A DNA stretch of 64,000 bases from Escherichia coli (GTDB lineage Bacteria > Pseudomonadota > Gammaproteobacteria > Enterobacterales > Enterobacteriaceae). Positions 60,878 through 61,253 of this stretch are shown here, piece by piece. Each line of letters begins with the position of its first letter. The stretch's first letter is position 1. The notes under the pieces were generated by a model. It was given only the letters and a program-made list of their open reading frames with translations. It did not search any database and was not told where the DNA came from. The stretch lies in NCBI RefSeq assembly GCF_003790525.1, contig NZ_CP033635.1; one strand, 5' to 3'. The position numbers and the translations under genes were made by a program.

Positions 60878-60986
60878 GAAATCATTAGTTTCACTTCGCA
60901 ATTTTGCCATTCCATTGCCGTTGATAATAGGTTTATCTGTTAATCTGTAAATTGATGTGAAAACTCTTATCAAACAGGATAATGCA

Positions 60987-61253
60987 ATGGAATGGCTGGT
61001 CAAAAAATCGTGCTGCAATAAACAAGATAACAGACATGTACTTATGCTCTGCGATGCTGGCGGCGCGATAAAAATGATCGCCGAAGTGAAGAGTGACTTC
61101 GCCGTGAAAGTGGGGGATTTACTCTCGCCTTTGCAGAATGCGCTTTATTGTATTAATCGTGAAAAGCTGCATACGGTGAAAGTCCTCTCGGCAAGCAGTT
61201 ATAGCCCCGATGAGTGGGAACGGCAGTGTAAAGTGGCAGGGAAAACTCAGTAA
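60987..61253 (+). CDS. pmrD: signal transduction connector protein PmrD
   Basis: 88-aa product beginning MEWLVKK; located between menE and the arn operon as in K-12. Confidence 0.8.

Follow-up and report, generated by a model that had tools for sequence, protein, structure and literature searches.

The pmrD gene of Escherichia coli lies tail to tail with arnF, and this locus raises two linked questions, namely how pmrD is switched on and whether its convergent overlap with arnF regulates either gene. PmrD connects PhoP/PhoQ, which acts in low Mg2+, to PmrA/PmrB and hence to the lipid A modification directed against polymyxin and colistin. We analysed the junction within a 64,000-nt stretch of E. 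coli DNA, hereafter the window. The 1-kb stretch around pmrD is 100% identical to several complete genomes, SMS-3-5 included, and matches 5419 of the 5426 complete E. coli genomes. The RefSeq annotations of SMS-3-5, which is 100% identical here, and of K-12 MG1655 (pmrD 2373272-2373538, arnF 2372892-2373278) agree with the layout in the window (Table 1). The pmrD frame starts with ATG at 60987 and ends with TAA at 61251-61253, and arnF ends with TGA at 61247-61249 on the minus strand. Between the Shine-Dalgarno sequence and the pmrD frame there is a choice of three ATGs (60982, 60987, and 60992), each in a different reading frame, and a preprint reports from tagging experiments that the second of them is the start in use. 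A longer pmrD frame with a GTG start at 60957 was dropped in favour of ATG 60987, which is backed by both RefSeq and the tagging experiments. The locus is the standard E. coli menE-pmrD/arnF junction, which is real, ordinary, and previously described.

Table 1. Features of the menE-pmrD/arnF junction, in coordinates of the 64,000-nt window
Feature	Position	Strand	Remarks
menE	59522-60877	+	
PhoP box CGTTGA-TAATA-GGTTTA (CGTTGATAATAGGTTTA)	60919-60935	+	direct repeat, 5-nt spacer; overlaps the -35 position of the pmrD promoter
Distal (upstream) PhoP half-site CGTTGA	60919-60924	+	4/6 consensus positions
Proximal PhoP half-site GGTTTA	60930-60935	+	perfect hexamer; promoter-side half-site; allele-specific
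TGTTAA (60938-43) and TGTAAA (60946-51), the "degenerate repeats"	60938-60951	+	box-to--10 spacer and start of the -10; not PhoP half-sites
-10 hexamer TAAATT	60948-60953	+	12 nt 3' of the PhoP box end (60935)
Predicted pmrD transcription start	60959	+	28-nt leader to ATG 60987; placed by homology with Salmonella
Shine-Dalgarno AGGA	60976-60979	+	7 nt 5' of the pmrD ATG
pmrD CDS	60987-61253	+	88 aa + stop; Pfam PF11183; 100% identical to K-12
C-rich, G-poor stretch of the arn transcript	61198-61275	-	C 36%, G 15%; at and just past the arnF stop
Overlap TCAGTAA of the convergent pmrD and arnF CDSs	61247-61253		7 nt; from sequence and RefSeq
arnF CDS	61247-61633	-	128 aa + stop; last gene of the arnBCADTEF operon
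3' extension of pmrD-strand transcripts	61254-61710 (end approximate)	+	antisense to all of arnF and the arnE 3' end; ends at the Rho region
13-bp hairpin within arnF codons (LSKAYALLS)	61390-61419	+	137-166 nt after the pmrD stop
arnE	61633-61968	-	
arnT	61965-63617	-	

PhoP is known to bind direct hexamer repeats with a 5-nt gap and thus an 11-bp period. Scanning both strands of the menE-pmrD spacer gave the top score to CGTTGA-TAATA-GGTTTA, with 10 of 12 consensus matches. On sequence alone this motif does not exceed chance: KGTTTA occurs 71 times in the 64-kb window against 54 +/- 7 in shuffled sequences, and the full repeat KGTTTA-N5-KGTTTA, allowing up to 2 mismatches, has 20 matches where 12.7 +/- 3.5 are expected, the site at 60919-60935 being one of the 20. 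Only its location, and its orthology to a box with a known footprint, lend the pmrD site credibility. This box, cTATTGC-CGTTT-TGTTTAt (CTATTGCCGTTTTGTTTAT), is the DNase-footprinted pmrD box of Salmonella listed in Table 1 of Zwir et al. 2012 (PMC3335776); it was found in the retrieved S. enterica locus and aligns column for column with cCGTTGA-TAATA-GGTTTAt of E. coli. The E. coli box has itself been published, as the entry 'CCGTTGAT---GAGTTTAT E. Coli' in supplementary file 17 of Harari et al. 2010 (PMC2908699), next to the entry 'pmrD: CTATTGCC---TTGTTTAT Salmonella'.

Conservation across genera points to the same register. We compared pmrD loci from E. albertii, E. fergusonii, other Escherichia, Citrobacter amalonaticus, C. 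freundii, and S. enterica subsp. enterica, arizonae, and diarizonae (Klebsiella being left out), and aligned 11 promoters from Escherichia, Citrobacter, and Salmonella with no gaps in the core. The TTG core of the distal half-site (60921-23) and the GTTTA of the proximal half-site are invariant in all 11, as are positions 1, 2, and 6 (T, A, and T) of the -10 hexamer.

The sequence-only reading had also seen a PhoP box upstream of pmrD, and the string that it quoted, GGTTTATCTGTTAATCTGTAAA, with its GGTTTA, TGTTAA, and TGTAAA, is indeed located at 60930-60951. It was right that a box exists here and that it includes a perfect hexamer, but it sought the partners of this hexamer downstream, whereas the true partner is the upstream CGTTGA. 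It had also called for a comparison with the Salmonella pmrD promoter; this comparison bears out an orthologous PhoP box, but the gap-free alignment places the partner half-site upstream. A PhoP site composed of GGTTTA and the downstream TGTTAA and TGTAAA, with PhoP bound over 60930-60951, is highly improbable. All three hexamers are present in the sequence, and in Salmonella the register running downstream from the perfect hexamer scores 9/12, equal to the 9/12 of the footprinted box, so that counts of consensus matches cannot always separate the upstream and downstream registers. However, TGTTAA and TGTAAA are offset from GGTTTA by 8 and 16 nt instead of the 11 nt needed for a PhoP repeat. 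The hexamer that does lie at the proper downstream spacing, TAATCT (60941-46), has just 2 of 6 matches, and the search for KGTTTA-N5-KGTTTA with up to 2 mismatches gave no match starting at 60930. Moreover, TGTAAA overlaps the conserved -10 hexamer, and the box footprinted in Salmonella and the one published for E. coli both reach upstream of the perfect hexamer. Since the -10 hexamer aligns with that of Salmonella and contains invariant columns, we assign TGTTAA to the spacer and TGTAAA to the beginning of the -10.

With the box in the upstream register, the promoter closely resembles that of Salmonella (Zwir et al. 2012, PMC3335776). In both, a single PhoP box in direct orientation lies in the orthologous menE-pmrD spacer, combines a degenerate distal with a good proximal half-site, and ends 12 nt before the -10, where TAACGT of Salmonella aligns with TAAATT of the window. 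The leader is 27 nt long in Salmonella, with the start 5 nt after the -10, against 28 nt predicted in the window. The half-sites themselves differ, being TATTGC/TGTTTA in Salmonella, CGTTGA/GGTTTA in the window, and CGTTGA/AGTTTA in K-12. Architecture I is defined by a 12-nt distance between box and -10 (Zwir et al. 2012, PMC3335776), and the window promoter, with its single direct-orientation box 12 nt from the -10 and over the -35 position, falls into this architecture (class II). No stand-alone sigma-70 -35/-10 promoter for pmrD was called on the plus strand, which fits a promoter dependent on an activator. E. coli pmrD is described as PhoP-dependent in low Mg2+ in a paper that cites Winfield and Groisman 2004 for it. 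Taken together, pmrD is most likely transcribed from an activator-dependent promoter of architecture I (class II), in which the single box replaces the -35 element. In low Mg2+, phospho-PhoP on the box would recruit RNA polymerase and start pmrD transcription near 60959; PmrD then shields phospho-PmrA from dephosphorylation and thereby raises transcription of the arn operon. For the strain of the window, PhoP binding at the pmrD box is predicted from this homology.

Kato, Latifi and Groisman reportedly studied the pmrD promoter of Salmonella enterica in 2003. In Salmonella, a PmrA box about 35-38 bp upstream of the PhoP box represses pmrD. We found this box at the expected place in S. arizonae and S. 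diarizonae, as ATTAAT-N5-GTTAAT with 10/12 matches. In the Escherichia spacer, by contrast, a Salmonella-type PmrA box (YTTAAK-N5-YTTAAK) is not present, the best candidates reaching 8-9/12 at unrelated positions. Across the whole window, the PmrA consensus with 3 mismatches allowed matches 316 times against 313 expected, which is the chance level. In agreement, Harari 2009 names the Salmonella pmrD promoter, and not that of E. coli, among the promoters carrying both boxes. The pmrD promoter is thus of the PmrA-repressed type in Salmonella, but not in Escherichia.

Within E. coli, the proximal half-site is polymorphic. The window box CGTTGA-TAATA-GGTTTA corresponds to CGTTGA-TAAAG-AGTTTA in K-12, the distal half-site being identical. 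Over the 61-nt core promoter, the window allele is found exactly in 681 of the 5426 complete E. coli genomes (12.6%) and the K-12 allele in 3835 (70.7%). Only a minority of E. coli genomes has the perfect GGTTTA half-site. Between 60850 and 62000, the window and K-12 differ by 28 mismatches, 15 of which cluster in the distal spacer at 60868-60930. The GGTTTA allele is common to E. albertii, and the AGTTTA type to E. fergusonii and a cryptic Escherichia lineage. As Citrobacter and Salmonella have TGTTTA, the consensus-type proximal half-site looks ancestral.

At the other end of the gene, neither transcript has an evident stop. We found no canonical intrinsic terminator 3' of the pmrD or arnF stop on either strand; the terminator-like matches in the scan all lie within coding sequences, are misplaced, or are on the wrong strand, and a looser scan near the junction yielded only hairpins with no adjacent U-tract. 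On the minus strand, the RNA beyond the arnF stop is no more stably folded than shuffled versions of it (z = -0.3), and no Rfam family matches 60400-62100 at E <= 1. As there is no intrinsic terminator near the junction on either strand, each transcript must run into the opposite gene.

Where the pmrD-strand RNA stops is indicated by a published Rho map. Adams et al. 2021 (PMC7815308, Supplementary file 2) report a Rho region at K-12 2372815 on the minus strand, antisense to arnE, the position being approximate because it was mapped in 800-nt windows, for K-12 in LB and not under PhoP-inducing conditions. The region has a Rho score of 6.5 (p = 2e-21); its upstream and downstream reads number 163 and 26 in untreated samples, and 298 and 310 under bicyclomycin. 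K-12 2372815 lies 457 nt past the pmrD stop, which corresponds to about 61710 in the window, as the window and K-12 align here free of indels. Because the Rho region sits that far beyond the stop, transcription of the pmrD strand crosses all of arnF in antisense. The extension RNA has more C than G at 61275-61400 and 61600-61750, with a C/G ratio of 1.5-1.9. In both respects, a bicyclomycin-sensitive region downstream of the gene and an untranslated extension richer in C than in G, pmrD resembles the antisense Rho cases of Adams et al. 2021 (PMC7815308). The same study assigns no Term-seq 3' end to pmrD, arnF, or menE. Since no terminator follows menE, part of the antisense RNA may be read-through from the men operon.

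These observations suggest how both transcripts might end. Transcripts of the pmrD strand would continue in antisense through arnF into arnE, until Rho ends their synthesis about 460 nt beyond the pmrD stop. On the arn transcript, ribosomes would leave at the arnF stop and expose the C-rich stretch there, whose composition makes it a plausible candidate Rho loading site, so that Rho would end this transcript inside or beyond pmrD. The claim of the sequence-only reading that the two convergent transcripts must overlap holds good, given the overlap of the coding sequences, the lack of an intrinsic terminator, the K-12 Rho region about 457 nt past the stop, and the published record of an overlapping pair. 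Its statement that the pmrD stop lies inside the 3' end of arnF, with 7 nt shared, is exact in its coordinates and agrees with RefSeq for both SMS-3-5 and K-12 MG1655.

We then asked what this overlap amounts to in evolutionary terms. The 76-nt junction, identical in K-12, is matched from end to end in 5238 of the 5426 complete E. coli genomes; one E. coli variant has a 23-nt overlap. The 7-nt overlap is shared by E. coli, E. fergusonii, and E. albertii. In S. enterica and S. diarizonae it measures 6 nt (TCATGA), and it gives way to a 3-nt gap in C. freundii and three C. amalonaticus-type loci and to a 9-nt gap in one C. amalonaticus. In Pseudescherichia, which is without pmrD, arnF and menE are separated by 7 nt. 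The C-termini of both PmrD and ArnF are variable. Neutral turnover of stop codons at a compact, terminator-less junction would produce just such spacing, drifting around zero, and such variable C-termini. Moreover, the junction is as tight in Pseudescherichia, which speaks against an arrangement made for pmrD in particular. Most likely, then, the overlap is incidental to a compact tail-to-tail arrangement whose transcripts are ended by Rho, and any antisense effect of it on pmrD or arnEF would be secondary. A tight junction without a terminator is conserved in Escherichia, Citrobacter, and Salmonella, and exists as well where pmrD is absent.

We therefore favour, with a probability of roughly 80%, a joint explanation in which an architecture I PhoP promoter drives pmrD and a compact tail-to-tail junction is handled by Rho, the overlap being mostly a by-product. 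Since the PhoP box, the dependence of pmrD on PhoP, the overlap of the genes, and that of their transcripts are all already known, the finding adds little to them; its contributions are the corrected layout of the PhoP box, the recognition that only a minority of E. coli carries the "perfect" half-site, and the evidence that the terminator-less junction persists across genera, even where pmrD is missing.

Along the path from PhoP through PmrD and PmrA to arn, pmrD and the arn operon are co-induced. A regulatory role of the overlap has to be weighed against this background. In such a scheme, the convergent overlap would regulate the pair via RNA polymerase collision and/or RNase III cleavage of the RNA duplex: PmrD raises arn transcription, arn read-through over pmrD would close a negative feedback loop, and pmrD- or men-strand transcripts would damp arnE and arnF. 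The overlap of the transcripts is documented. ExcludonFinder (NAR 2025, PMC12288877) lists arnF-pmrD among 165 core convergent overlapping pairs of MG1655, a pair entering the core set if it overlaps in no fewer than 50% of the 58 RNA-seq data sets; its authors cite arnF-pmrD as a functionally related pair and regard pairs of this kind as regulatory (PMC12288877). The window shares this property with the MG1655 excludons, as arnF-pmrD is itself in the core list and the 76-nt junction is the one of MG1655. In addition, the antisense extension spans the whole of arnF, Escherichia is without the Salmonella-type PmrA box that provides promoter-level feedback in Salmonella, and the tight junction is kept in every pmrD-carrying genus retrieved (Escherichia, Salmonella, and Citrobacter).

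Nevertheless, we consider regulation through the overlap unlikely. Defined excludons repress each other reciprocally, whereas pmrD and arn are induced together and not alternately; their co-induction in low Mg2+ is the opposite of mutually exclusive expression. The junction between arnF and menE is equally tight in pmrD-less Pseudescherichia, the spacing drifts, both C-termini vary, and 60400-62100 yielded neither an Rfam family nor a conserved antisense element. A literature search found no experiment on antisense regulation at the pmrD-arnF junction. Antisense interference between pmrD and arn, which the sequence-only reading had proposed, is possible but unlikely, the Rho-handled by-product being our preferred reading.

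The absence of the PmrA box makes antisense feedback a tidy substitute in Escherichia; however, the overlap does not replace that box, since Salmonella has both. If antisense regulation did operate, arn read-through over pmrD, together with pmrD and men read-through over arnF and arnE, would constitute feedback on PhoP-PmrD-PmrA in Escherichia, adding a small layer to a well-studied resistance circuit. A separate reading is that the two old promoter alleles have PhoP boxes of unequal strength, and we hold readings of this kind, the antisense feedback included, to be quite unlikely. Were the alleles unequal, the difference could contribute to strain differences in low-Mg2+-induced polymyxin resistance.

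The remaining alternative concerns a defined end of the pmrD mRNA. Inside arnF, a hairpin with a free energy of -17.5 to -18.1 kcal/mol in the pmrD sense is the strongest structure 3' of pmrD in Escherichia, and also, at a similar position, in 2 of the 4 C. amalonaticus-type loci. Only 0.8% of the synonymous recodings of the invariant arnF peptide fold as well as the hairpin (-18.1 kcal/mol), and the 211-nt region that holds it folds with z = -2.5 against shuffled sequence. In E. coli and E. fergusonii, G-U pairs give the pmrD-sense hairpin a higher stability than its arnF-sense counterpart. On these grounds, the hairpin at 61390-61419 with its U-containing tail (CAAGUUUAUGUAGUGUUUUAU) might be the true end of the pmrD mRNA, either as a weak intrinsic terminator or as a stop point for 3' exonucleases after Rho termination, so that pmrD would have a defined 3' UTR, about 170-185 nt long and complementary to arnF. 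We regard such an end as doubtful. No U-tract adjoins the stem, so the terminator scan gives no call, and Adams 2021 shows no 3' end assigned to pmrD or arnF. Furthermore, the peptide LSKAYALLS is invariant and becomes quasi-palindromic once encoded, the hairpin also occurs in the species without pmrD, and the strand difference flips in E. albertii. As a stop for exonucleases or a structure that stabilises the 3' end, the hairpin may still play a part, the evidence being ambiguous, within the Rho-handled junction that we prefer.

As an element specific to pmrD, the hairpin finds no support, being present in Pseudescherichia, which lacks the gene, and differing in stability between the strands in an inconsistent manner. 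Its position in the tail of the recodings (0.8%) and its folding score (z = -2.5) hint that selection has acted on some RNA structure here, a feature not expected if the region were purely neutral.

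Of the 28 mismatches that separate 60850-62000 from K-12, 15 fall within a divergent patch in the distal part of the menE–pmrD spacer, whereas the coding sequence of pmrD matches that of K-12 at 100% identity. The window allele of this spacer also occurs in E. albertii, and the K-12 allele is common to E. fergusonii and one cryptic Escherichia lineage. Given this split of the alleles, the sequence comparison suggests that the patch represents either an old cross-species polymorphism or recombination.

On the opposite strand, a sigma-70-like promoter sequence overlaps the PhoP box of pmrD and is directed into menE, antisense to this gene. 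The TGTAAA hexamer, which the sequence-only reading had taken as a degenerate PhoP repeat, is indeed present and is the reverse complement of the –35 hexamer of this promoter-like match. In the K-12 allele, the –10 hexamer of the match decays from TATTAT to CTTTAT. A second, weaker sigma-70-like match lies on the same strand.

Candidate features around pmrD (window coordinates)
Feature	Position	Strand	Details
PhoP-like match	60649-60665	+	GGTTTTGCAGGTGTTTA; 1 mismatch; top PhoP-consensus match of entire window
Terminator-like hairpin	60644-60659		
Divergent spacer patch	60868-60930		
Sigma-70-like promoter	60951-60924	-	TTTACA, 16-nt spacer, TATTAT; 10/12 matches
Second sigma-70-like match	61003-60976	-	weaker
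pmrD triple ATG	60982-60994		ATGs at 60982, 60987 and 60992
Terminator-like hairpin	61339-61354	-	CTTCCCGGCTGGGAAG then GAACTTTTTC; inside arnF, arnF sense
PhoP-like half-site trio	61411-61438	+	TGCTTA, AGTTTA, TGTTTT; 11 bp spacing; antisense to arnF

The best PhoP-like match is located within menE, in the 3' portion of its coding sequence, where it overlaps a terminator-like hairpin. It is probably a chance occurrence, since no –10-like hexamer follows at a distance of 12 nt. The half-site trio directly follows another hairpin (61390-61419) and resides within a conserved portion of the arnF coding sequence; no convincing –10 was seen for it, and it also probably arose by chance. A terminator-like hairpin in the sense direction of arnF is placed about 90 nt ahead of the arnF stop codon. 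If active, it would truncate arnF, the final gene in the arn operon.

In Pseudescherichia sp. (L016, 2501-4265), which is devoid of pmrD, arnF and menE are convergent and separated by a gap of only 7 nt. Thus, the arn–men operon junction lacks a terminator, regardless of whether pmrD is present. At the variant junction of E. coli SCPM-O-B-8794 (L004, 2501-2773), pmrD is lengthened to 90 aa with an altered C-terminus and overlaps the arnF stop by 23 nt; further upstream, the arnF reading frame of this strain looks disrupted or recombinant.

Downstream of the Shine-Dalgarno sequence AGGA, the three ATGs of pmrD are each in a different reading frame, fitting the "start site array" that a Shigella and E. 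coli preprint describes; of the three, the second is the true start. Homologs of pmrD (Pfam PF11183) occupy the same position in Citrobacter freundii (L014, 2891-3154) and C. amalonaticus (L006-L009). These loci contradict a preprint claim that Citrobacter species lack pmrD.
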